Assembly (NCBI GenBank): GCA_030390025.1
Contig: CM059439.1
Coordinates: 82,522,001-82,586,000 of the forward strand
DNA from: Squalus acanthias
Lineage: Eukaryota
Length of the DNA stretch: 64,000 nt
Reading direction: 5' to 3'
The notes under the pieces: generated by a model
Database searches by the model: none
What the model was told of the DNA's origin: nothing
The model's input: the letters and a program-made list of their open reading frames with translations, nothing else
Program-made: the position numbers and the translations under genes
In this document: one piece after another, positions 12,136 to 61,663 of the stretch
Position numbering within the stretch: position 1 is the first letter of the stretch
How the letters are laid out: each line of letters starts with the position of its first letter

Positions 12136-12817
12136 ATTGAGAAAACCTAACTGGCAAAGCAGAGCTCAAACTTGTGTATATGGGCTTGCAAAATGTGTTT
12201 GATAAAGTATTGTTAGCAAAATCGAAGCCTATGTGATAAAAGGGGCAGTATAAAATTGGCTAAGGGATAGAAAACAGAAAGTTGTGGTGAATGGCTGTTT
12301 TTCGGACTGGAGGGAAGTATACAGTGGAGTTCCCCAGGGATCAATACTAGGACCACTGCTGTTTTTGATGTACATTAACGACTTAGACTTGGGGGCACAG
12401 GGCACAATTTTGAAATCTGCAGATGACGCGAAACTTGGAAGTATAGTAAACAGTGAGGAAGATAGTCATAAACTTCAAAAGGACATATACAGGCTGGTGG
12501 AATAGGCGGACACATGGCAGATGAAATTTAACGCAGAAAAGCATGAGATGATACATTTTGGTAGGAAGAATGAGGGGAGACAATACATGCTAAATGGTAC
12601 AATTTGAAAAGGGGTGCAAGAAGAGAGACACATGGGGGAGTTTGTGCACAAATCTTTGAAGGTGGCAGGACAGGTTAACAAAGCAGTTAGTAAAGCATGT
12701 AGGATCCTGGGCTTTATAAATAGAGGCCATGATGCGGAGATGCCGGTGTTGGACTGGGGTGGACAAAAGTGAGAAGTCGCACAACACCAGGTTATAGTCC
12801 AACAGTTTTATTTGAAA

Positions 12818-12855
12818 TCACAAGCTTTCGGAGCTGCTGCCCCTTCGTCAGGTGA
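12818..12855 (-). ncRNA. Minimal type-I hammerhead ribozyme motif (antisense arm)
   Basis: Reverse complement reads TCAC-CTGACGA-A-GGGGC(AGCA)GCTCC-GAAA-GCTT-GTGA. Confidence 0.75.
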
Positions 12856-12857
12856 CT

Positions 12858-12894
12858 TCACCTGACGAAGGAGCAGCGCTCCGAAAGCTTGTGA
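12858..12894 (+). ncRNA. Minimal type-I hammerhead ribozyme motif
   Basis: TCAC-CTGACGA-A-GGAGC(AGC)GCTCC-GAAA-GCTT-GTGA: stem I TCAC/GTGA, CUGANGA core, stem II, GAAA, palindromic AGCT stem III. Confidence 0.78.
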
Positions 12895-14641
12895 TTTCAA
12901 ATAAAACTGTTGGACTATAACCTGGTGTTGTGCGACTTCTCACTTTTATAAATAGAGGCAGAGAGTACAAAAGCCAGGAAGTTATGCTAAACCTACATAA
13001 AACACTAGTTCAGCCCCAGTTGGTGTATTGTGTCCAATTCTGGGCACCACACTTTAGGAAGGAAGTGAAGGCTTTGGGGAGCGTGCAGAAGAGATTTACG
13101 AGAATGGTTCCAAGGATGAGGGGTTACAGTTACGCGGATAGACTGGGGTTGTCGTTCTTAGAGCAGAGAAGTCCAAGAGGAGATTCGATAGAGGTGTTTA
13201 AAATCATGAAGGGTTTAGATAGAGTAAATAAAGAGAAACTGTTTCCGAGGGCTGAAGGGTCGATAACCAGAGGACACAGATTTAAGGTGACTGGCAAAAG
13301 AAACAGAGGCGACATGAGGAAAAACTTGTTTAAGCAACGAGTGGTTAGGATTTGGAATGCACTGCCTCATAGGGTGGTGGATACAGATTCAAGAGTCACC
13401 TTCAAAAGGAAATAGGATAAATACTTGAAGGAGGAATAATTGCAGGGATATGGGGAAAGAGCGGGGGGAGTGGGACTAACTGGATTGCTCTTCGAAAGAG
13501 CCGGCACAGACCCGATGGGTCGAATGGCCTCCTTCTGTGCTGTACTGTTCTCTGATTCAATCAGAGCAACAGAAAGTTAATATTTGGAGTTTGTGCTTTC
13601 TGGCTTTTTGTGGCAAGCTTGTGGATACATTCAGTGTGAAAATGGCAATTAAACTACAGTATAGGAATGTGGTTAGAAGAACAAAGAGCTGTCAACTGAT
13701 AACATTCTCCAGGAGGAGGAAATTAACATTTCCACAATACTCTGTGTTGCTGGTAATTTTGATCCAGTGGAGTGTTCCCCTTGGAAACGTGCATTTGCAA
13801 AACAACAGCACGATAGTACAGGGGAGTCAAGAGGAGCAAAAAAAGAAATAGCCACCAACATGCACAACAAATTGCTGCCCAAAGTTGACTGAATAAACTG
13901 AAAAGGGTTTCCTTTTCAGATGGAGTGCAAAAATCCAACTGTGGACCTTGACTAATGAAAGAGGAATGCAGTGAAAAGGTCCCAGTATTCCCCACTCCAT
14001 TAATCATCCATGAAGTTCAGAAGCGCTTTTCTTTACCGAGCTCATGTTCTTGTTTGCTCAGCATTTGCCAAAAGTCAACACAAATGGGTTCAAGTTCAGT
14101 CCATTTTAATGACTCTGTCTCTGCAAGTGCACAAACAACTGAGAACTCTTTTGCAATCCATACACAAACGTTCGTTTTTTGCAGGAGTACACAGCATATA
14201 ATCAAACATGCAAGAATCAAGGTCCAAGAATTCCCCCATTCTTTGAGTCCTCCACTTCTGGAAGCAATGACTCAGGCCACATATTGCAATTGAGAAAGCC
14301 CAGACCATTAGTACAACTAGGCTATTAAACTATTACCACAGCCAACTGTGACCCAGCCTTCCACCCAACCACACGCTGACCAATATTTCCTCTCCAGCCT
14401 GGTGACCAACTGTACCACTCCCACTTAAAACTGAGACAAGCTAACTGAGCACAGACCAGCCCAGCCCCTTATGGGTTTGTATGGTGCCGGCACAGCCCAC
14501 ATAATGATTTATGCATCCCACAGCCACAGGAAATAGGGGGAACCTTGGCTCATGTCCAAGGACTTTTAAACACAGGAACAGCATTGTGCATTTAGTCCTC
14601 ATCACTGCTCTAAAATGCATGATAATAAAATGATGTCTTAC

Positions 14642-28727: not shown

Positions 28728-30012
28728 TTTAAAAACAGAAAATGCTGGAAACTCGCAACAGGTCAGGCAGTATCTGTGGAGAGAGAAACAGAGTTTCAGG
28801 TCGATGACCTTTCGTTAGAACTGGATAAAGTTAGAGATGCAACGGATTTTAAGCAAGTGCAGGGGAAGGGAAAGGGGGAGGGGAGGAAAGAACAAAAGGG
28901 AAGGTCTGTGATAGGATGGAAGGCAGGAGAGATTAAATACAAAAGGGATGATGGTGGAAGGAAAAAAGGAGATAGTAATGGGACAAGTAAAGAAACAAAA
29001 GATGACTCTTGAAGAGGTGTAAATGGGAATGGCAGAATCATCAACAGCTGCCACGTGAAAAAATTGGGGCAGAAGTTATGGTCTGAAATTATTGAACTCT
29101 ATGTTGAGTCCAGAAGGCTGTAATGTGCCTAATCAAATGACGAGGTGTTGTTCCTCGAGCTTACGTTGAGCTTCGTTGGAAAAGTGTAAGAGGCCGAGGA
29201 CGCAGAGGTCAGAGTGCGAGTGGAGCGTGAAGATGTGTTTGGTGGTGGGATCATGCTGGAGGTGGTGGAGGATGATCCATTGAATGTGGAAGCTGGTGGG
29301 GTGAAAAAGGAGGACAAGGGGAACCCGATCGTGGTTCTGAGAGGGAGAGGAAGGGGTGAGAGCTTAAGTGCGGGAAACAGAACGGATACAGTCGAGGGCC
29401 GTGTCAACCATGGTGGAGGGAATCCTCGATTGAGGAAAAAGGAAGACATATCGGAAGCACTAGTATGGTAGGTGGTATCGTCAGAGCAGATGCGACAGAG
29501 ACAGAGAAACTGGGAGAATGTAAGAGTCCTTACAGGAAGAGGGGTGAGAGGAAGTGTAGTCCAGGTAGCTGTGGGAGTCAGTGGGCTTATATTGGATGTT
29601 TGTTGATAGCCTATCCCCAGAAATGGAGACAGAGAAGTCGAGGAAGGGAAGAGTCGGAGATGGACCATGTGAAGGTAAGGGAAGGGTGGAAATTGGAAGC
29701 AAAGTGAATGAAATTTTCGAGTTCAGGGGGAGAGCAGGAAACGGCACCCATACAGTCATCAATGTACCGGAAAAAGAGGTGAGGGAGGGGACCTGAGTAG
29801 GACTGGAACAAAGAATGTTCCACATATCCCACAAAAAGGCAGGCATAGCTAGGACCCATGCAGGTTCCCCTAGCAACACCTTTAATTTGGAGGAAGTGAG
29901 TGGAGTCAAAGGAGTTATTGTTCAATGTGAGAATAATTTCAGCCAGGCGGAGGAGGGTGGTGGAGGATGGGGATTGGTTGGGCCTCTGTTCAAGGAAGAA
30001 GCGGAGCGCCCT
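28728..30012 (-). mobile_element. Penelope-like element fragment (RT C-terminal part, internal deletion, pLTR)
   Basis: KGVA.GT.MGPSYACLF and FRYIDD motifs (PLE RT); pLTR-like terminus at 28728-28830. Confidence 0.88.
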
Positions 30013-30067
30013 GATGACCCTTAAGCTGTAATGTAGTATTATGAAATACCATGAGCCACAAGAGGGA

Positions 30068-30290
30068 GAACAACAACTTGCATTTATATAGCTTCACAGG
30101 AGCGTTACCAGACAAAATTTGACACTGAGCCATAAGGTGATATTAGGGCAGATGGTCAAAGAGGTAGGTTTTAAGAAGCATCTTAAAGGAGAAATGAGCG
30201 GTAGAGAGGCGGAGAGGTTTAAGGAGGAAATTCCAGAGCGTATGGCCCAGGCAGCTGAAAGCACGACTGCCAATGGTGGAACAGAAAAGA
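30068..30290 (-). mobile_element. L2 3' fragment
   Basis: CAACAACTTGCATTTATATAGC..; homologous to 34966-35220. Confidence 0.75.
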
Positions 30291-30992: not shown

Positions 30993-32885
30993 ATAGCAAA
31001 ATACTGCGGACGCTGGAAATCCGAAATAACAACAGAAAACGCTGCAAAAACTCAGCAGGCCAGGCAGCATCTGTGGAGAGAGAAACAGAGTTAACGTTTC
31101 AGGTCGAAGACCTTTCGTCAGAACTGGAAAAAAGCAGGAAATTAAATAGATTTGAAGCAAGTATAATGCTGGGAAAAGGGGGAGGGGATGAAAGAACAAA
31201 AGGGAAGGTCAGTGGTAGGCTAGAAAGCAGGAGAGATTAAGAGACATTAAGAGATATTCATGGCAAGAGGAGGTGGTAATGTGACAGGCTGAGGCTAGAT
31301 GAAGTGTGAAATGCGCTGGCAGAATGAAGGACAGCTGCCAGCTTCAGGGAGGGAAGAAAAAAAGGCCAAACAAAAGGGTGAATGAAAAAATAAAATAAAA
31401 ATATATATATATGTGATAGGGGCCGGGGTTATGATCTGAAATTGTTGAACTCTATGTTGAGTCCAGAAGGCTGTAAAGTGCCTAAACGAAAGATGAGGTG
31501 CTGTTCCTCGAGCTTACGCTGAGCTTCCGTGGAACAATGCAAGAGGCCGAGGACTGTGAGGTCAGAGTGGGAGTGGAGCGGAGAATTAAAGTGACAGGCC
31601 ACCGGGAGCTCGGGGTCCCCCTTACGGACTGAACGGAGGTGTTCCGCAAAGCGGTGACCCAATCTGCGTTTGGTCTCCCCAATGTAGAGACGACCACATC
31701 GTGAGCTGCGAATACAGTATACTAAATGACAGGAAGTACAAGTAAATCGCTGTTTCACCTTGAAGGGGTGTTTGGGGCCCTGGACAGTGGGAAGGGGGGA
31801 GGTATAAGGGCATGTGTTGTATCTCCTGCGCTTGCACGGGAAGGTGCCGGGCAAGGGGGAAGGGGTGCTGGGGGTGGTAGAGGAGTGGACTAGGGTGTCA
31901 TGGAGGGAGCGGTCCCTGCGGAATGCTGAAAGGGGAGGCGAGGGGAAGATGCGTTTGGTGGTGGGATCACGCTGGAGGTGGCAGAAATGGCAGAGGATGA
32001 TCCGTTGAATGTGGAGGCTGGTGAGGTGAAAGGTGAGGACAAGGGGAACTCTATCGTGGTTCCGGGAGGGAGGGACAGGGGTGAGGGCAGAAGTGCGGGA
32101 GATAGAACGGACACAGTCGAGGGCCGAGTCAACCACAGTAGAGGGGAATCCTCGGTTGAGGAAAAAGGAAGACATGTCGGAAGCACTAGTAAGGAAGGTG
32201 GCATCGTCAGAGCAGATGCGGCGGAGACAGAGAAACTGGGAGAATAGAATAGAGTCCTTACAGGAGGCGGGGTGGGAGGAAGTGTAGTCCAGGTAGCTGT
32301 GGGAGTCAGTGGGCTTGTAGTGAATGTTAGGTCAATAACCTATCCCCAGAAATGGAGACGGAGAAGTCGAGGAAGGGAAGGGAAGAGTCGGAGATGGACC
32401 ATGTGAAGGTGAGGGAAGGGTGGAAATTGGAAGCATAGTGAATGAAATTTTCTAGTTCAGGGCGAGAGCAGGAGACGGCACCGATACAGTCATCAATGTA
32501 CCGGAAAAAGAGATGAGGGAGGGGACCTGAGTAGGACTGGAACAAAGAGTGTTCCACATATCCCACGAAAAGGCAGGCATAGCTAGGACCCATGCGGGTA
32601 CCAATAGCAACACCTTTGATTTGGAGGAAATGAGTGGAGTCAAAGGAGAAGTTGTTCAATGTGAGAACAAGTTCAGCCAGGCGGAGGAGAGTGGTGGTGG
32701 ATGGGGACTGGTTGGGCCTCTGTTCAAGGAAGAAGCGGAGCGCCCTCAGGCCATCCTGGTGGGGGATGGAGGTGTAGAGAGATTGTACCTGTTTCTCTCT
32801 CCATAGATACTGCCTGACCTGCTGAGCATTTACAACATTTTCTGTTTTTATTACAGATTTCCAGCATCCGCAGTATTTTGTTTTG
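30993..32885 (-). mobile_element. Penelope-like element: RT C-terminus + GIY-YIG endonuclease, with an inverted pLTR piece at the truncated 5' end
   Basis: ORF 32327-32659 has GT.MGPSYA and RYIDD. ORF 31429-32175 has LVYCI..C..LYIGET.R.L..RF.EH and GLN (GIY-YIG). pLTR at 30993-31130; inverted pLTR segment at ~32788-32885. Confidence 0.92.
31089..31125 (-). ncRNA. Minimal hammerhead ribozyme motif in Penelope pLTR
   Basis: Reverse complement reads AGTT-CTGACGA-A-AGGTC(TTC)GACCT-GAAA-CGTT-AACT. Confidence 0.78.
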
Positions 32886-45255: not shown

Positions 45256-46086
45256 TGAATAAATGACTGATTGAAATCTAAACAAGGTAGAACAATAAAT
45301 TTAAATTCTCTTAATGAAAATATGCCACACATTATTACTCGCAATTGGTTTATAGCAATTGTTACACTTACTGTTCATTAATTACTGTTTGTCTGTTAAG
45401 ATGCATAATTACAGAGACATATAATGACTATGTGAGAGAGCTGTATTCTGTTATCTGTGTCTAAGCAATTTCCTTTCAACAGTAATTAGCACTTGTAAGT
45501 AAACAATTCAGATATGACTTGTAAACCAGTTAACAAAGAGCATTTCAGCAACAATATTCTGCATGTAATAAAAACAGAATTATCACACATTTGTTATATA
45601 TAGAGTTCGAGTAAATTAGTTGACTTCCAACAAATTTGAAAACATTAATTCCAAAAATCCAGAAAATAACTCCGTATCGAGCTACCTGTTAGATTGTTTC
45701 TCTCCATCTCTAAAAGGATTAAATATTAAAAGATAATATGATTAAACCACTGGATCTCCCATAATGTAGCTCACAGATAGTCAGGATATGCTAGTTCATC
45801 AGCGCAGGAGTGTCATACAAGGTAACGCACAATATATAATGATGCTGCTAAGGTCCAACTGTGTGTAATCTGGCCTCTCCCTTCAAGGGCACAAGGTCGA
45901 ATTGATGTAATATTCTGATGTTAGTTTGAAACCATTCGCTGCTAGGTAAATCCTGAGGTCAATTAAAAGGAATTTTCTCTTGTTGGGGAAGTTTTGCTAG
46001 TGATTGGGAAATGATCACTCTTTCGTAATGATACCGAAATGTATGTAATTGTCTAAGTGTGACAAACAATATCTATGAATATATAT

Positions 46087-46293
46087 GATGCGGAGATGCC
46101 GGTGTTGGACTGGGGTGGACAAAAGTGAGAAGTCGCACAACACCAGGTTACAGTCCAACAGTTTTATTTGAAATCACAAGCTTTCAGAGCTGCTGCCCCT
46201 TCGTCAGGTGAAGTGAAGGGGCAGCAGCTCCGAAAGCTTGTGATTTCAAATAAAACTGTTGGACTATAACCTGGTGTTGTGCGACTTCTCACT
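46087..46293. mobile_element. Second palindromic hammerhead-bearing insertion with 13-bp TSD
   Basis: Near-identical to 12728-12944. TSD TATGAATATATAT at 46074-46086 and 46294-46306. Intact hammerhead core on the minus arm (46174-46211); the plus arm lacks CTGAC. Confidence 0.88.
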
Positions 46294-52835: not shown

Positions 52836-52914
52836 ATTTCGGCTCGATTACAATTTGGTGACCTGTTCTGAGGGGGGAGAAAGAGGGAAGGAGGGAGGGG
52901 GACAAAGAAAATGG

Positions 52915-54786
52915 GGATGGACGGAGGGAGAGAGGGCGCGGGGAGGGAACGGAGGGAGAGGGGGCGCGGGGAGAGGGGGCGCGGGGAGAGGGGGCGCGGG
53001 GAGGGACGGAGGGAGAGGGGGCGCGGGGAGGGACGGAGGGAGAGGGGGCGCGGGGAGGGACGGAGGGGGCGCGGGGAGGGAGAGGGGGCGCGGGGAGGGA
53101 GAGGGGGCGCGGGGAGGGAGAGGGGGCGCGGGGAGGGAGGGAGGGAGGGAGAGGGGGGCGGGGAGGGANNNNNNNNNNNNNNNNNNNNNNNNNNNNNNNN
53201 NNNNNNNNNNNNNNNNNNNNNNNNNNNNNNNNNNNNNNNNNNNNNNNNNNNNNNNNNNNNNNNNNNNNNNNNNNNNNNNNNNNNNNNNNNNNNNNNNNNN
53301 NNNNGAGGGAGAGGGGGCGCGGGGAGGGAGGGAGAGGGGGCGCGGGGAGGGAGGGAGGGAGAGGGGGCGCGGGGAGGGAGAGGGGGCGCGGGGAGGGAGG
53401 GAGGGAGAGGGAGGGAGGGAGAGGGGGCGCGGGGAGGGAGGGAGGGAGAGGGGGCGCGGGGAGGGAGGNNNNNNNNNNNNNNNNNNNNNNNNNNNNNNNN
53501 NNNNNNNNNNNNNNNNNNNNNNNNNNNNNNNNNNNNNNNNNNNNNNNNNNNNNNNNNNNNNNNNNNNNNNNNNNNNNNNNNNNNNNNNNNNNNNNNNNNN
53601 NNNNNNNNNNNNNNNNNNNNNNNNNNNNNNNNGAGGGAGAGGGGGCGCGGGGAGGGAGGGAGGGAGAGGGGGCGCGGGGAGGGAGGGAGGGAGAGAGGGC
53701 GCGGGGAGGGAGGGAGGGAGAGGGGGCGCGGGGAGGGAGGGAGGGAGGGAGAGGGGGCGCGGGGAGGGACGGGGGGAGAGGGGGCGCGGGGAGGGACGGG
53801 GGGAGAGGGGGCGCGGGGAGGGACGGAGGGAGAGGGGGCGCGGGGAGGGACGGGGGGAGAGGGGGCGCGGGGAGGGACGGGGGGAGAGGGGGCGCGGGGA
53901 GGGACGGGGGGAGAGGGGGCGCGGGGAGGGACGGGGGGAGAGGGGGCGCGGGGAGGGACGGGGGGGAGAGGGGGCGCGGGGAGGGACGGGGGGAGAGGGG
54001 GCGCGGGGAGGGACGGGGGGAGAGGGGGCGCGGGGAGGGACGGGGGGAGAGGGGGCGCGGGGAGGGACGGGGGGGAGAGGGGGCGCGGGGAGGGACGGGG
54101 GAGAGGGGGCGCGGGGAGGGACGGGGGGAGAGGGGGCGCGGGGAGGGACGGGGGGAGAGGGGGCGCGGGGGAGGGACGGGGGGAGAGGGGGCGCGGGGAG
54201 GGACGGGGGGAGAGGGGGCGCGGGGAGGGACGGGGGGAGAGGGGGCGCGGGGAGGGAGGGAGGGAGAGGGGGCGCGGGGAGGGAGGGAGGGAGAGGGGGC
54301 GCGGGGAGGGACGGAGGGAGAGGGGGCGCGGGGAGGGAGGGAGGGAGAGGGGGCGCGGGGAGGGTCGGAGGGAGAGCGGGCGCGGGGAGGGACGGAGGGA
54401 GAGGGGGCGCGGGGAGGGACGGAGGGAGAGGGGGCGCGGGGAGGGACGGAGGGAGAGGGGGCGCGGGGAGGGACGGAGGGAGAGGGGGCGCGGGGAGGGA
54501 GGGAGGGAGAGGGGGCGCGGGGAGGGACGGAGGGAGAGGGGGCGCGGGGAGGGAGGGAGGGAGAGGGGGCGCGGGGAGGGAGGGAGGGAGAGGGGGCGCG
54601 GGGAGGGACGGAGGGAGAGGGGGCGCGGGGAGGGACGGAGGGAGAGGGGGCGCGGGGAGGGAGGGAGGGAGAGGGGGCGCGGGGAGGGAGGGAGGGAGAG
54701 GGGGCGCGGGGAGGGACGGAGGGAGAGGGGGCGCGGGGAGGGACGGAGGGAGAGGGGGCGCGGGGAGAGGGGGCGCGGGGAGGGAC
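52915..54786 (+). repeat. G-rich ~27-bp minisatellite, with assembly gaps at 53169-53304 and 53469-53632
   Basis: Unit approx. GGACGGAGGGAGAGGGGGCGCGGGGAG with GGAG/GGAC/GGGG variants in blocks; plus strand almost devoid of T. Confidence 0.95.
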
Positions 54787-56795
54787 AGAAAGTATACTTC
54801 AAAAGTACTTCTTTGGATGGAAAGCACTTTTCTTTCTTCATTTTGTATTGAGGATGCAAAGTTGCAAATAATTATTTATGCAAGCTAGCATCACAGGAAA
54901 GCACAATTCATCAATAGCAGCACAAGCTGCATCTCAGTCAGTTTGCGCACAGGCTGATTACCAGGTCAGACCAAGTGTGCAACTAACAGCACTGAGTTTT
55001 GTGAGCTGGAAAATCTTTTGTGAAGAATTTTTAAAAAATCAGCTGCCTAATGTTTTTATTTTTGACTTGTCATCAAGGTCATCACCAAAGCAAAGTCACA
55101 GTGCCAATTCTGCCACAGTAAGCACCTCCAGAGTAGGCAGTTTCAAATCAATGCAACGTCACCTTGGGCTGAAGCCAGAAGCAGTTGAAATGCTCCACCC
55201 AATCCGCAATGTCCTAGCCAGCAAAGTAGCTAACATCGGCCTGTATGGTTCTCCTGCAGTCAAACAGTTGCTTAAAACTGTAGGAGACGCTGTCCTGTAA
55301 CCAAGTGGAGAAGGGCCGCCCGACCCCCGTCTCCCATGCAATCAGTTACTTCAGGAATAGGATCTGCAATGCAGGTTAAATGTGTAATGCGAGCAGAGAA
55401 AATAGACTGCAACGGTAAAAATCCAACATGGCTGTAAAACAGCTCTCGACATTCTTATACTTCGAGTCTACCCGGTGCGCGCACATATCTTTAAGCTGCC
55501 CTGCAGAGTCAGTCAGCTTTGTGAAACAGCATCTTTTATTTGCCCATTACTTCTGACAAATGTGCACACTGGGCAGGTGGATACAAATGATGCAATTCAG
55601 TTCTGCCGTCAACAGTAATCACTGCATTTACTTTACTACAAGTTTCGCCAAGGGAATAAGCAACAAAACGGTCACAAAAAGTCTTACTGGATCTGGAGCA
55701 TAAGGACTGCATTATCTTTGCCATCAATGCTGCTGCCTCCTCTGCTCAGTGACCCAGTGCTGCCATTCCCAAACGAGTGTGATGTACGACTCCAGTTTAT
55801 TCAATCGATGGCTTTTTCCCCCCCACAGAACCCCATTATTCACAAATGATTACTAACGAGTCATTGCTCACTACTCTCTGTATAGCTGCAGTCGACGGGT
55901 CAGATAAATGGCTCAGGAACAAATGCTGACTGAAAAGTATTTCTCGCCAATACATCGATACGTCAACACCATGAGCCTGTCAGACTGAGGTGATGATAAT
56001 TTATCTGACACTTTCTCTGGCTTTAACAAATCTTTTCTTCAATTGCGTGCAATTGGGATAATCAGAGAAGTTACTGTTTTATGATTAAACCACAAGCAAC
56101 AACAGCACACCATAGTGCAATCTGTCTATTATGATCACAATGAACTTTGGGGAGAGAGCAGGGTAGCAAGATTCGTTTTGGATTACTCGAAGAAAGACTC
56201 GATGGGCCGGGAGGCCTCCTTCTGTGTTGTAAATTTCTATCTGTCTATGACTCATGGACCGCAATTTACAGCTGGCCATTTTATTAACGATCTTAAGGAG
56301 CAAACCCTAGCTACCACCCAACTACTGCATAAGTAAAATCAAAGTTTTTAAAATATGATTGAAAATATAATATGACAATGGAAACTTATCACTATCACAG
56401 TGCATATAAAGTTACAATGAGAAAAAAATCAAACTCCTTTGCTGGAGACAAGTAGTGGGCAACTTCAGGGATTACAATTCTCGGAGATATAACAGAAGAT
56501 AAGGGCCGGCATTTTCTGTACCTGGGCGGGTTGGGTGCGGGCGGTCGACATGGCGGGGCGCTCCCCCATTCCTCATTCCATTCCGCTCCCGAGATCCACT
56601 TTCACTTAATGGTGCCTGTTAAGGCAGCCCTGCATGTTACCCCGGCCCTATTAAATGGTGCGGGTCTGATGACATCATTGATGTGTTTTCAGCCGGGATA
56701 TTTAAAGGAGCCATGGCTACATTGCATTTGAAGGTTCATCTAGGAGTGTGCAGGCACTGTACTGGTGCATTGGAGTGTTGCGAAGACTTGGAAAC

Positions 56796-58924
56796 ATGAC
56801 TGCACAGAGGCAGAGGGCTGCACCCAGGTTCTCCGATGACTCCCTCCATTTGCTTTTGGAGGGAGTCAGAGCATGCAGGGAGGTCCTCTTCCCTTCTGAT
56901 GGGTGGAAAAGACCTCCCCAACAGACCAAAGGAGCCTGGTTGGAGATTGCAGAGGAGGTGAACAGCAAGGATGTTGTCAGGAGGACCTGGGTGCAGTGCC
57001 AGAAACGTTTCAATGATCTCATTCGATCAGGAAAGGTGAGTGCAAAGCCAAACTCGACATCCTGCTGTGCCTCTCATCACATCCCAACCACTCTGCCTTC
57101 GCAAGCCTGCTCCTGCACCTCATTACTCGCACCAGCATGCCTTGCAAGTCCACCCATCCCTCTCTATCTACATTATCAGATCCCCATCTGACTAACCACC
57201 CCTCACACTCATCTTAATGCAATCATACCAACTAACAACACACAAGGATTTGGCATTGGCACCCCACTCCATCACAGTCACCCTCGAAAGATGTAACCCA
57301 TCCATTCCTTAGTCATTAAATCACTCTCACTCAAACTTATCTTCTTTCCCTCCTTGCAAGAGAGCCCAAAATAGTTGGGAGAGGGAGAGAACCAGAGGTG
57401 GCCCTTCATCAGTGGCCACCTTAACTGCAGCAGAGGAGGTTGCCCTGGAAGTATCAGGAGTCACAGAGCAGCTGGCGGAAGAAGAGGGAGACATCTCAGC
57501 AACCTGGTGACAAAATTACATCTCATACAGCCACATGCCATACAGCAGTCACTAATATAGTCACTCATATAGGGACTGATGTCAGCAGCCAGCGAATGCT
57601 CATCATGTGCATAATGGTATCGTTACCCATTCTTGACAGCACACTTCTAAATCTCTTTACTCTCCCACAGGTCCATTGAGAGCCCCCTCTCCCACTGTCG
57701 AGGAGGACGGCTCCTCAGAGGAGCCTCCAGCCTTTGAGGTCGCACCGTCACCAGACTTAAGCGCATCCAGCACCCCCGCAGATACTTACACCTCAGTGGG
57801 TCCCGCGCGAGATAGAGTAGTGCTGTCACCTGGTGTGCCACACGTCACAAGTGAGCAAAAGCAGATGGAGGAGACAGTGACAGCAGTGGAGACTCCTCAC
57901 CAGAGGGCGCAAAACGTTCCCAGCTCTGCTCAGCTGCATGCAGACGCTGAGCCTCGGGGGCCAGCCAGAAAGAGAGCGATCCTAGTGTTTTTTTTTATTA
58001 GTTCATGGGATGCGGGCGCCGCTGGCAAGGCCAGCATTTATTGCCGATCCCTAATTGCCCTCGAGAAGGTGGTGGTGAGCAACCTTCTTCAACCGCTGCA
58101 GTCTGTGTGGTGAAGGTACTCCTACAGTGCTGTTAGGGAGGGAGTTCCAGGATTTTGACCCAGCGACGATGAAGGAACGGCAATAGACTTCCAAGTCAGG
58201 ATGGTGTGTGACTTGGAGGTGATGGTGTTCCCATGCGCCTGCTGCCCTTGTCCTTGTGCAGGAAGAAGTGCAGGAGGCTTTGGTAGGTTTTGCAATAACG
58301 ATGTCTGCAAATGTGCAGAGAATGGAGGAGTCCATCTCCAACATGAGCATCCCCGTGTCGCAGGCGATGGCGACTGTATGCTCTTCCATGGAAAGGATAG
58401 CCACCTGTATGGAGCAGCTATTGCATCACTCACAGAAGCACATGGTATCTATGGCGAATAGATGGCTATCTATGGAGAATGGATGACTATCTATGGAGAA
58501 TGGATGGGAGACGCTCATAGACCTCCTCTCTCGGAGGGATGTCAACGTAGACTTGGGTCCTCATGGCCCCACTACTGTGTAGCAAAGTGCTCTCCACCTC
58601 CTCGCTAGCTGAGAGGGATGATGGCGAGGGGACATGGAAGTGGGGGCTCCTCTCAAAGCGTTCTCACTTCTCCCCCGTTGCCTCCCTCTCAGTCAGAGTC
58701 CCACATGCCTCCTGGGATCGCGATGGCTGGAGTCTGCCCCTGCATAGTTGCAGGAGGAACAGACTTTGGCGGAGCCATCACAGGCTCCAAGACCCAGAGG
58801 ACGTCCGCCAAAAGTGTCTATGCAGTCGCAGCAGGGAAGTGAGCAGGCTGCCTCTACCTTCGCTGAAGCCACAGGGGTAGCACCTTGTAGAAGCATGCGT
58901 AAGAGAAAGATGAAACACAAGTAG
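56796..58924 (+). pseudogene. Harbinger ORF1 Myb/SANT-like DNA-binding protein (spliced, disrupted)
   Basis: Exon 56796-57035 encodes RAAPRFSDDSL..LL..V..AWLEIAEEVN...RTWVQCQKRFNDL (Myb/SANT), with donor AAG|GTGAGT. Further pieces at ~57361 and after the acceptor at 57670, a coiled coil from 58256, and a basic end RKRKMKHK*. Confidence 0.8.
57988..58255 (-). mobile_element. Zenon-like LINE 3' end inserted in Harbinger ORF1
   Basis: Matches 5808-6087 (poly-T, GCTGGCAAGGCCAGCATTTATTGCC). Confidence 0.9.
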
Positions 58925-59200
58925 ATGATGCACAAGGGTAAGCACTTGGGTGTTTTATTAACTGTGTGAGTGACGTTTCCGTTAATTTGATGTCACAGAT
59001 AAAAATTATTTTCAACTCTTTCCGGTCATGGCCAATTCTGTCTGCAACTTTGGAAGTGGCTTAGTGAGTTGGAGTGAATGGTGAGACCTAATGTTACCTC
59101 CAGCAATGGTGGTCAGTGTGAAAGGAATGGCCTAATCGCTTTATGGAGTTGCTGTGGGGTTTTGGGAGCCTGGCGCAGCATATAGGTGTAATGCCTTAAG

Positions 59201-61663
59201 TTAAATAAATCTGTCCATTATGAGGCCATCCATGGCCTCCGGGCAGCAATGTGCTCGGGTGCTGATGGGATCTGGACCGCAGGTTCCTCCTGCTTCTCCT
59301 CCTCTTCCTCCTGCTCTGAAGAGGCTGTGCACTCAAAGCCTTACTCCTCATGTAGCGCTAATCCTCGCCGCTGCGCTATGTTGTGCAGGGCACAGAAGAC
59401 CACGACGATTCTGGAGACCCTGGCTAGTGCGTACTGAAGGGCTCCTCCAGATCTGTCAAGGCATCTGAAGCGCATTTTCAGCATGCCTATTGTCTGCTCT
59501 GACACATCTGGTGGAAGTGTGGTTTTTATTGTATCTCTCCTCAGACTCAGTACATGGCCCCCTCAAGGGTGTCATGAGCCACATCTTCAGTGGATAGCCC
59601 TTGTCTCCAAGCAGCCAGCCAGAAAGTCTGTTTTGAGGAGGGAAGAGCTGAGGGAGGGTGGACTGCCGCAGGACGAAAGAGTCAATACAGCAGCCAGGGA
59701 ATTTGGTGCACACATGCATGATGATCTTCCTATGGTTGCAGACAAGCTGCACATTGAGGGAGTGGAAGCCCTTGCGGTTGACAAAGACACCCTGCACCCG
59801 TGGGAAGCCAGCCAGCCAGAGCGGCAAAGTCGAGCGCCTGCTCAGTAACAATGGCTTCATCAGTGGCAAAGTTGATATAATTGGCTGACGTGACAAAAAG
59901 AGCATCGGTGACCTGTGTGATGCATCTGTGGGCAGCCGACTGTGAGATACCGCAAATATCTGCTGCAGATCCCTGGAAGGAGTCTGAGGTGAAGAATTTG
60001 AGGGCGATGGTGACTTTGACAGCCACTGGTAAGGCGTGTCCACCTGCTCCTCTGGGCTGCAGGTCTTGCTCCAGCAATGTGCAAATGTCTGCGACAACCT
60101 GGCACGATAGCCTGAGCCTCCTTTGGCACTGCTGCTCAGTCATGTTGAGGAAGCTCATCCTCTGCCTGTAAAAATTAACGGGCACTTGGAGAGGTTTAAG
60201 CTAATTAAGGAGAGCCAACACAGATTTGTAAAAGGAAGATCGTGTTTGACTAATCTAATTGAACTTTTATATGATGTAACAGAGAGGATTGATGAAGGGA
60301 ATGCAATGGATCTTGTCTACATGGATTTTCGGAAGGCGTTTGACAAAGTACCACATAGAAGGCTGGTTAACAAAATTGAAGCTCATGGAATAGGTGGGTC
60401 AGTGGCAGCTTGGATAAGGAATTGGCTTGAGGACAGAAAACAGCGAGTTGTGGTAAATGGCTGTTTTTCAGACTGGAGGATGGTCGACAGTGGTGTTCCC
60501 CAAGGGTCAGTGCTGGGGCCACTGCTTTTTTTGATATATATAAATAACCTGGATATTGGAATACAGAGTAGAATTTCTAAATTTGCCAATGACACCAAAC
60601 TTGGGGGCGTGGCAAACAGTGAGGATGATACTAATCGACTGCAACAGGACGTAGAAAGGCTAGCAGAATGGGCAGACAAGTGGCAAATGGAATTTAATAG
60701 AGAAGTGTGAGGTGATGCATTTTGGCAGAAGGGAGAGGCAATATACACTTAATGGTACAGTTTTAAAGAGTGTGCAGGGACAGAGGGACCTGGGAGTTAA
60801 TGTGCATAGGTCCCTGAAGGAGGCAGGACATATTGAGAGAGTGGTTAGCAAAGCATATGGGATCTTGGGCTTCATAAATAGGGGTATCGAAGTACAAAAG
60901 TAGAGAAGTTATGCTGAACCTTTATAAAGCGCTGGTTAGGCCACAACTGGAGTATTACGTCCAGTTCTGGTCACCACACTTTAGGAAGGATGTGAAGGAC
61001 CTTGAGAGGGTGCAGAGGAGATTTACCAGAATGGTTCCGGGGATGGGGGATCTTAGCTACAAGGACAGGTTGGAGAAGCTGTATTTGCTTTCATTAGAGC
61101 AAAGGAGGTTGAGGGGTGATTTGATAGAGGTGTACAAGATTATGACAGGTTTGGATAGGCTAGACAGGGGAAAGGCTGTTCCCACTAGTTGATGGTACAA
61201 GGACTAGGGGACACAGATTTAAGGTTTTGGGCAAGAGATACAGGGGGGATGTGAGGAAAAACTTTATGTAGCGAGTGGTGAGGACCTGGAACTCGCTGCC
61301 GACGGAAGTGGTGGAAGCGGAGACACTCAATGTTTTCAAGGGGAGACTGGATAGGCACTTGAGGGAAATAAACTTGCAGGGGGATAGAGCGGGGGAATGG
61401 GACTGACTGGATTGCTCTACAGAGAGCTGGCACGGACTCGATGGGTTGAATGGCCTCCTTCTGTGCCGTTATGACGCTATGACTATGACTCTACGACCCT
61501 GTGTTTGGTGGGATCACTTCCGGTGCGGTGCAGCCCTGCGCTGATGCCCTCTGTCCTGTGCAGCATCAGGTGGTTGAGGGGAAGGTTGGTGGTGCTGCTG
61601 GTGTTGGGGCTCATCGTGGTGCGATTCTGAGGACCAAGGTGAGACAGTATAAATGGCACCCAT
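59201..61663 (-). pseudogene. Harbinger DDE transposase (HARBI1/DDE_Tnp_4-like), frameshifted and split by CR1
   Basis: [37 protein letters not shown] (HTH), [34 protein letters not shown] and YN..H..TR motifs. Putative ATG at 61663 and stop at 59201-59203. Confidence 0.88.
60171..61494 (+). mobile_element. CR1 LINE fragment inserted in the Harbinger transposase
   Basis: [21 protein letters not shown] and FANDTK motifs; ATGACT-type tail. Removing it restores AGGGTC|TACAGG (R-V-Y-R) in the transposase. Confidence 0.92.

Follow-up and report, generated by a model that had tools for sequence, protein, structure and literature searches.

A 217-bp palindromic insert at positions 12728–12944 of the window (a stretch of 64,000 nucleotides of Squalus acanthias DNA, contig CM059439.1) is a new instance of a published form of Penelope insertion, and not a new ribozyme element. 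We consider it highly probable that the whole insert is explained as two back-to-back pseudo-LTR (pLTR) ends of a very abundant autonomous Penelope family, most likely left by one landing. As a locus it is unremarkable, and it is of value for the trace that it keeps of how Penelope elements likely copy themselves.

Removal of one copy of the TSD rejoins the reading frame of the surrounding LINE (GFINRG-REYKS). This, together with the exact 15-nt repeats and the pairing of the arms, bears out the initial annotation, which had described a 217-bp inverted-repeat insert with a 15-bp TSD inside a CR1. The LINE, which has no Pfam match, we take to be a CR1 from its motifs. The same CR1-type site (12713–12727) has been struck independently in at least three loci (the window, L126 and L178). 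The arms of the insert are ~91 bp long and pair over 70 nt at 100% identity (12765–12834 with 12878–12947) and over 20 nt at 95% (12836–12855 with 12858–12877), around a centre of 2 nt; the short arm reaches 12947 by sharing a 3-nt microhomology with the TSD. For one strand of the insert, the computed folding energy is −170 kcal/mol (z = −23.7), a stability reached by 0 of 200 shuffles, in agreement with the hairpin RNA that had been predicted on read-through. The palindrome is asymmetric, with the left 37 nt forming an unpaired tail, and what separates the two arms is a single substitution and a 1-nt indel, both in stem II/loop II. Each hammerhead consists of stem I (UCAC/GUGA), CUGACGA, an extra A, a 5-bp stem II, GAAA and AGCU, with the cut predicted after CUU. 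Hammerheads had been claimed for both arms and both strands; there is indeed one complete core per arm, and the claim needs refining in that the palindrome is asymmetric and each strand carries one hammerhead, not two. Among 17 Rfam matches at E ≤ 10, none was to a hammerhead family at the locus, so that the proposed model scan did not recover the motifs; this is expected because they are minimal forms.

Table 1. Features of the insert, its target site and a related copy in the window.
Feature	Position	Strand	Basis or remark
Decayed CR1-type LINE 3' fragment, target of insertion	12200..13550 (limits approximate)	+	name presumed from motifs
TSD, left copy	12713..12727	.	last 3 nt also match the start of the element's ORF (microhomology)
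Long arm: Neptune-type Penelope pLTR, from hammerhead to ORF start codon	12728..12855	-	126/128 (98.4%) identical to the pLTR-ORF junction of intact L252
One-sided 37-nt tail; its ATG (12730-12728) starts the RT+EN ORF in full-length copies	12728..12764	-	such a tail is described in PMC3846280 and PMC8557442
Minimal type I hammerhead, variant G14 with 4-nt loop II	12818..12855	-	sequence motif
Head-to-head junction	12854..12857	.	+ arm starts at the A (12855) of the putative initiator, with G (12854) before it; start-site reading presumed
Short inverted arm: pLTR copy stopping ~34-37 nt short of the ATG	12855..12944	+	93/93 identical to the pLTRs of L252 and L250
Minimal type I hammerhead, variant A14 with 3-nt loop II	12858..12894	+	sequence motif
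TSD, right copy	12945..12959	.	exact repeat
Second stub of the same Penelope family	46085..46293	.	same asymmetry, other centre, ~13-nt TSD

The second stub has outer ends similar to those of the insert; its arms are joined via a 5-nt microhomology, and the hammerhead of one arm is truncated. Rfam returned only miRNA-like matches to this copy, far below gathering scores.

An autonomous RT and GIY-YIG partner sharing the pLTR, as the initial annotation had anticipated, was found in L242 and L252 (at least 2 of 40 regions around junctions), where intact frames of 891 and 892 aa, with RT and, at the C-terminus, GIY-YIG, run from the arm's ATG. At a further locus, L061, the tail leads directly into an ORF beginning MTTIDTTNC. 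This ORF matches RVT_1 in Pfam (E = 2e-9); the GIY-YIG model gave no match in the frameshifted copy scanned, and a GIY-YIG-type motif (VVYLIRC...WYIGET) is read directly in the ORF. Since the arms are the pLTR of intact RT and GIY-YIG elements, the insert is of Penelope origin, as had been proposed, and is not a separate protein-free element. Between RT and EN, the two intact frames carry the linker CHGNLCKTC (CxxxxCxxC), a motif common to Neptune and Nematis. A CX2-5CxxC linker in this position is a criterion for the Neptune clade in PMC8557442, and by this motif the autonomous element would be Neptune-type. The repeat unit of the family is 3,136 bp, and tandem or partial-tandem pLTR units are confirmed by 14 direct 5'/3' pLTR pairs and a 4-copy array on C2. 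Counted as exact pattern matches, the genome holds 66,315 copies of an arm 29-mer, 12,739 of a tail 27-mer and 549 of the pLTR-ORF junction. The minus strand of the window also holds, at 31075–32800 and ~28800–30100, pieces of another, distant Penelope family whose hammerhead is different. We rejected membership of the insert in that family, as the partner ORF and the 31-kb Penelope are 25% identical over 241 aa; the earlier distinction between two PLE families is upheld. A candidate intron of ~70 nt (12755–12822, minus strand), resembling the 75-nt intron reported for D. virilis Penelope (PMC2377424), would lie between a GU at the predicted ribozyme cut site and a branch-point/pyrimidine/CAG-like signal in the tail.

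The exact 28-nt centre of the insert occurs in 414 genomic copies. We sampled 71 loci (the window and 70 of these 414) and were able to score 66. Of these, 20 carry the tail on one arm, 39 on the other and 0 on both. In 58 of the 66, one arm ends at −2 to +3 relative to the ATG and the other at least 25 nt upstream (mostly −34 to −39). The TSD of these loci has a mode of 13 nt, a range of 8–17 nt and 32% G+C. Copies with an identical centre vary in tail side, arm variants and ends; a master palindrome, suggested by the 414 shared centres, was rejected on these grounds. By reading, about 57 of the first 70 of the 12,739 tail loci have an inverted piece adjoining, with junctions among the 70 that range from within the hammerhead to far into the ORF. 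Genome-wide, the spacing of inverted (−/+) arm pairs is continuous from ~60 bp to ~3 kb. Given this continuum, tails on either side and no double tails, we conclude that the palindrome is the short end of a continuum and is rebuilt at each insertion, although a whole palindrome may occasionally have moved secondarily. A giant inverted insertion (L061:1980-8153) combines a full-length copy with an inverted copy of ~2.9 kb and has the same tail asymmetry.

The palindromes consist of an inverted, 5'-truncated copy with a tail of 30–40 bp on one end and a TSD, as PLE insertions do. We compared them with published systems. EN+ PLE insertions (PMC3846280, PMC8557442) share with the insert the head-to-head pLTRs, an inverted copy ~37 bp shorter, a single tail, a TSD and a hammerhead in the pLTR. 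In Pen2a_Av, the inverted pLTR is 37 bp shorter, with a one-sided tail and a TSD (PMC3846280), and D. virilis Penelope has a 34–37-bp repeat (PMC2377424); the general scheme of EN+ PLE insertions is given in PMC8557442, PMC8969392 and PMC2377424. The insert differs from these in comprising two pLTR ends only, with no ORF; TSDs are ~13 bp here and 8–10 bp there, and the young copies of the present family number in the tens of thousands. Like this family, PAc (Poseidon of Anolis carolinensis; PMC11167929) has two internal RT starts bounding the tail, AT-rich targets and use of both strands, which are cut and extended. However, RT starts ~111–118 nt into the ORF in PAc, as opposed to the ATG and ~36 nt upstream here; the PAc hammerhead overlaps the ATG whereas ours lies ~90 nt upstream of it; and the Neptune-type CxxxxCxxC linker of our ORF is unlike PAc (PMC11167929). 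The same source describes PLE integration past first-strand synthesis as still unresolved.

In full-length copies, TATATAT lies ~30 nt upstream of a YYANWYY-type initiator, whose A is 3 bases before stem I; we take YYANWYY to be the initiator consensus. We mapped the ends of 158 arms from loci not selected by centre. Relative to the initiator A (+1), 45 arms run far upstream, 15 break at −57 to −8, 71 at −5 to +9 and 27 at +10 to +39; 11 of the 71 breaks near +1 sit at +5, probably a subfamily variant. Genome-wide, the base before the initiator A is the template C in 17,520 cases and another base in 5,033. The base before +1 is non-template in ~15% of 22,553, compared with 4.1% (722/17,520) one base further up; one base down, 2,860 are non-template. 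By hand tally, the first 100 listed non-template bases before +1 are G (53), T (33, a natural variant) and A (14), and the first 100 listed one base further up are G (41), A (33) and C (26), so that G:A is 53:14 before +1 versus 41:33 one base up (p = 0.004). In about 12 of 19 inspected cases with G before +1, the partner arm also offers a G; because the partner can often supply it, part of the excess could stem from a bias in microhomology alone. From these sequences we infer that the 5' ends of the arms mark the point at which reverse transcription ran off a capped 5' end and copied the cap as an extra G. Copying of the cap is known for other retrotransposons; a literature search on an extra guanine or cap in element ends found no paper (subscription papers were beyond reach). 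In eight of eight mini-tandems (L233, L235, L237, L239, L241, L253, L255 and L261), the initial ~70–170 nt of the ORF lead without a break into a pLTR that begins at the putative start site, the arm resuming within −2 to 0 of +1; the join is close to ORF nt 70 in six of the eight, which suggests a preferred template-jump site.

The predicted ribozyme cut site shows no such accumulation: 597 purine-preceded matches against ~66,000 arms, with no hot spot. This is in line with PAc, whose insertion ends likewise bear no mark of ribozyme cutting and for whose insertion cleavage is dispensable (PMC11167929). Two other causes of the centre were rejected: the ribozyme cut site, as the centre lies ~35 nt upstream of the cut, and stalling of RT at the hairpin, as the ends appear to lie on the 5' side of the structure. 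Added here are the pile-up of arm ends at a TATA/Inr-like start, the excess of G immediately ahead of it, and arm pairs with two family variants, the window's among them.

The stubs suggest the following mechanism. In AT-rich DNA, the endonuclease of the element would nick the two strands at points ~13 nt from each other. Each nicked 3' end would prime reverse transcription inside an RNA, aided by a microhomology of 1–3 nt; one start would be at the ORF start codon, the other ~36 nt upstream. Both cDNAs would extend to the RNA 5' end, which would lie immediately before the hammerhead at the TATA/Inr start, and the G before +1 would likely be a copy of the cap; the two cDNA ends would be joined through microhomology. 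In at least some events, the arms may derive from two pLTR templates (two RNAs or both pLTRs of one RNA). Read-through from the host would yield an RNA duplex of ~91 bp that traps the hammerhead. Published data on PAc likewise have two internal start sites bounding the tail (PMC11167929). More tentatively, we read the stubs as the genome-scale footprint of a dimeric enzyme with two RNA templates, one subunit starting at the ATG and the other ~36 nt upstream, with capped run-off and head-to-head joining. If this reading is true, tail, inversion and TSD are explained together, the stubs are dead-end products of the mRNA's 5' end, and the hammerhead plays no part in setting the insertion ends. 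Literature searches returned no paper on PLE mechanism for Penelope twin priming or inverted insertion (subscription papers and Repbase beyond reach) and no relevant paper on template switching or two RNA templates (subscription papers beyond reach).

The two differences between the window's arms are both known variants of the family, and 5 of the 71 loci show the same pair of differences, which can fall on either arm. At three diagnostic sites, arms are discordant in 13/68, 5/70 and 4/68 loci, versus 23.9, 15.0 and 34.0 after shuffling. Since discordance is well below that of shuffled pairing yet present, the templates usually have one source, and sometimes not; since arms agree far above random, one template or fold-back could also account for most events. 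Arm pairs with two family variants would imply two templates in some events. The direct 5'/3' pLTR pairs of full-length copies are discordant in 3 of 14 cases, and a single RNA could therefore supply both templates through its two pLTRs. Discordant arms may also stem from two RNAs, or from gene conversion at a later time with one of the other ~66,000 copies as donor. Where the TSD is exact over at least 10 nt (48 loci), arm ends overlap the TSD by a mean of 1.5 nt (long arm) and 2.1 nt (short arm), values obtained without a shuffle control; in the window the overlaps are 3 nt and 3 nt. These short microhomologies differ from PAc, which primes in vitro without homology (PMC11167929).

Fold-back (self-priming) of one cDNA, as proposed for PLE inverted junctions (PMC3846280), would make the inverted arm from a single template, with arm differences arising later by mutation or gene conversion. 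We consider this unlikely. The agreement of most arm pairs fits it, a cDNA end that snaps back over a 2-nt loop would give the commonest junction, and fold-back requires the tail to sit on the +1-reaching arm, which is the case in 39 of 59 scored tailed copies. However, 20 of the 59, among them the window, carry it on the opposite arm, where fold-back from the +1 arm cannot supply it. In addition, the same two-change arm difference is found in five loci, and the fixed end of the short arm at −34 to −39 matches a second priming site (PMC11167929).

To assess the ribozyme itself, we surveyed 144 arms anchored downstream of the motif. A hammerhead is recognisable in 117, the other 27 being truncated or unmatched. 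Position N7 is free (C/G/U/A), GAAA is kept in 114 of 117, stem I is changed from CAC/GUG to UAC/GUA in 12 arms, and a subfamily has U-A/A-U for G-C in stem II. The core is thus conserved across copies, as the initial annotation supposed, and its sequence pattern suggests that selection acts on the parent elements and not on 12728–12944. Forcing the hammerhead fold costs 57.1 and 56.7 kcal/mol on the two strands. Because each hammerhead follows its own antisense at a penalty of ~57 kcal/mol, a dsRNA hairpin is predicted rather than self-cleavage. The self-cleaving RNA that had been envisaged for this locus is therefore unlikely, and an RNA duplex is predicted from either strand. Minimal hammerheads were inactive as monomers (PMC4209133). 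Those of PLEs resemble ours in being type I, with no real helix III, a palindromic 15.2–16.2, an extra nucleotide before stem II and a 4-bp helix I; opposite-strand pairs 100–700 bp apart are already known (PMC4209133), whereas here the pair abuts, stem II has 5 bp and the cut triplet is mostly CUU. A literature search on Penelope hammerheads in sharks and on shark repeat landscapes found nothing relevant (subscription papers and Repbase beyond reach).

The initial annotation had inferred a Penelope-mobilised, protein-free unit. On such a view the insert would be a non-autonomous retrozyme- or MITE-like unit that is transcribed, cleaves itself and is re-mobilised whole by Penelope protein. This now appears highly improbable. 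It would account for the shared 28-nt centre, for a second window copy with similar outer ends and for the conserved core with compensatory stems. Animal retrozymes have been proposed as PLE derivatives (bioRxiv 10.64898/2026.07.22.740005), and non-LTR retrozymes (PMC7229834 and the same preprint) are, like the insert, non-coding, PLE-related and equipped with a type I hammerhead. However, same-centre copies differ in tail side, arm variant and ends, centres and spacings across the genome vary continuously, and the arms are those of autonomous pLTRs. Retrozymes are direct tandem repeats, whereas the insert is made of two inverted copies with a single ribozyme on each strand and no tandem monomers at the locus, and the palindromes are without the fixed structure of a self-propagating unit. 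MITEs have symmetric TIRs and a short fixed TSD, as opposed to the asymmetric ends (58/66) and TSDs of 8–17 nt found here. The unit is also without the upstream TATA box and the ORF-start region needed by the Anolis protein (PMC11167929), its hammerhead would be trapped, and conservation is explained by selection on autonomous parents. Four internally deleted elements (L258, L260, L265 and L269) have the ORF start joined to the 3' UTR, keep the promoter and the second pLTR, and form a unit of ~300–450 bp; these are better candidates for non-autonomous or retrozyme-like elements than the palindrome.

A RasGAP-domain exon lies on the minus strand at C15:82484381, ~37 kb beyond the window start, and exon-like peptides are found on the same strand at ~49190 and ~14750. 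Because these flank the insert, it is intronic in a minus-strand RasGAP gene, as had been annotated; the gene is presumably RASAL2, judging by its sequence. That the insert has been co-opted in this gene as a regulatory hairpin (an editing, small-RNA or poly(A) site) is scarcely credible: it is an intronic, near-perfect duplex of ~91 bp with an AATAAA on the host-sense strand, but it belongs to a set of near-identical young copies numbering tens of thousands, is 98–100% identical to source pLTRs and sits inside another transposon. Copies of the family would load host pre-mRNAs with long perfect hairpins, likely a large pool of substrates for A-to-I editing. With tens of thousands of young, variant-bearing copies, the two-primer, two-template and cap-copying ideas can be tested by counting.

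Elsewhere in the window, positions 52850–54800 hold a long, purine-rich, low-complexity tandem array that includes both N runs; all its frames are open and it is probably non-coding. Fragments at 56700–60200 resemble what we take, from motifs in the translations, to be a Harbinger-type transposase and a Myb/SANT-like partner.
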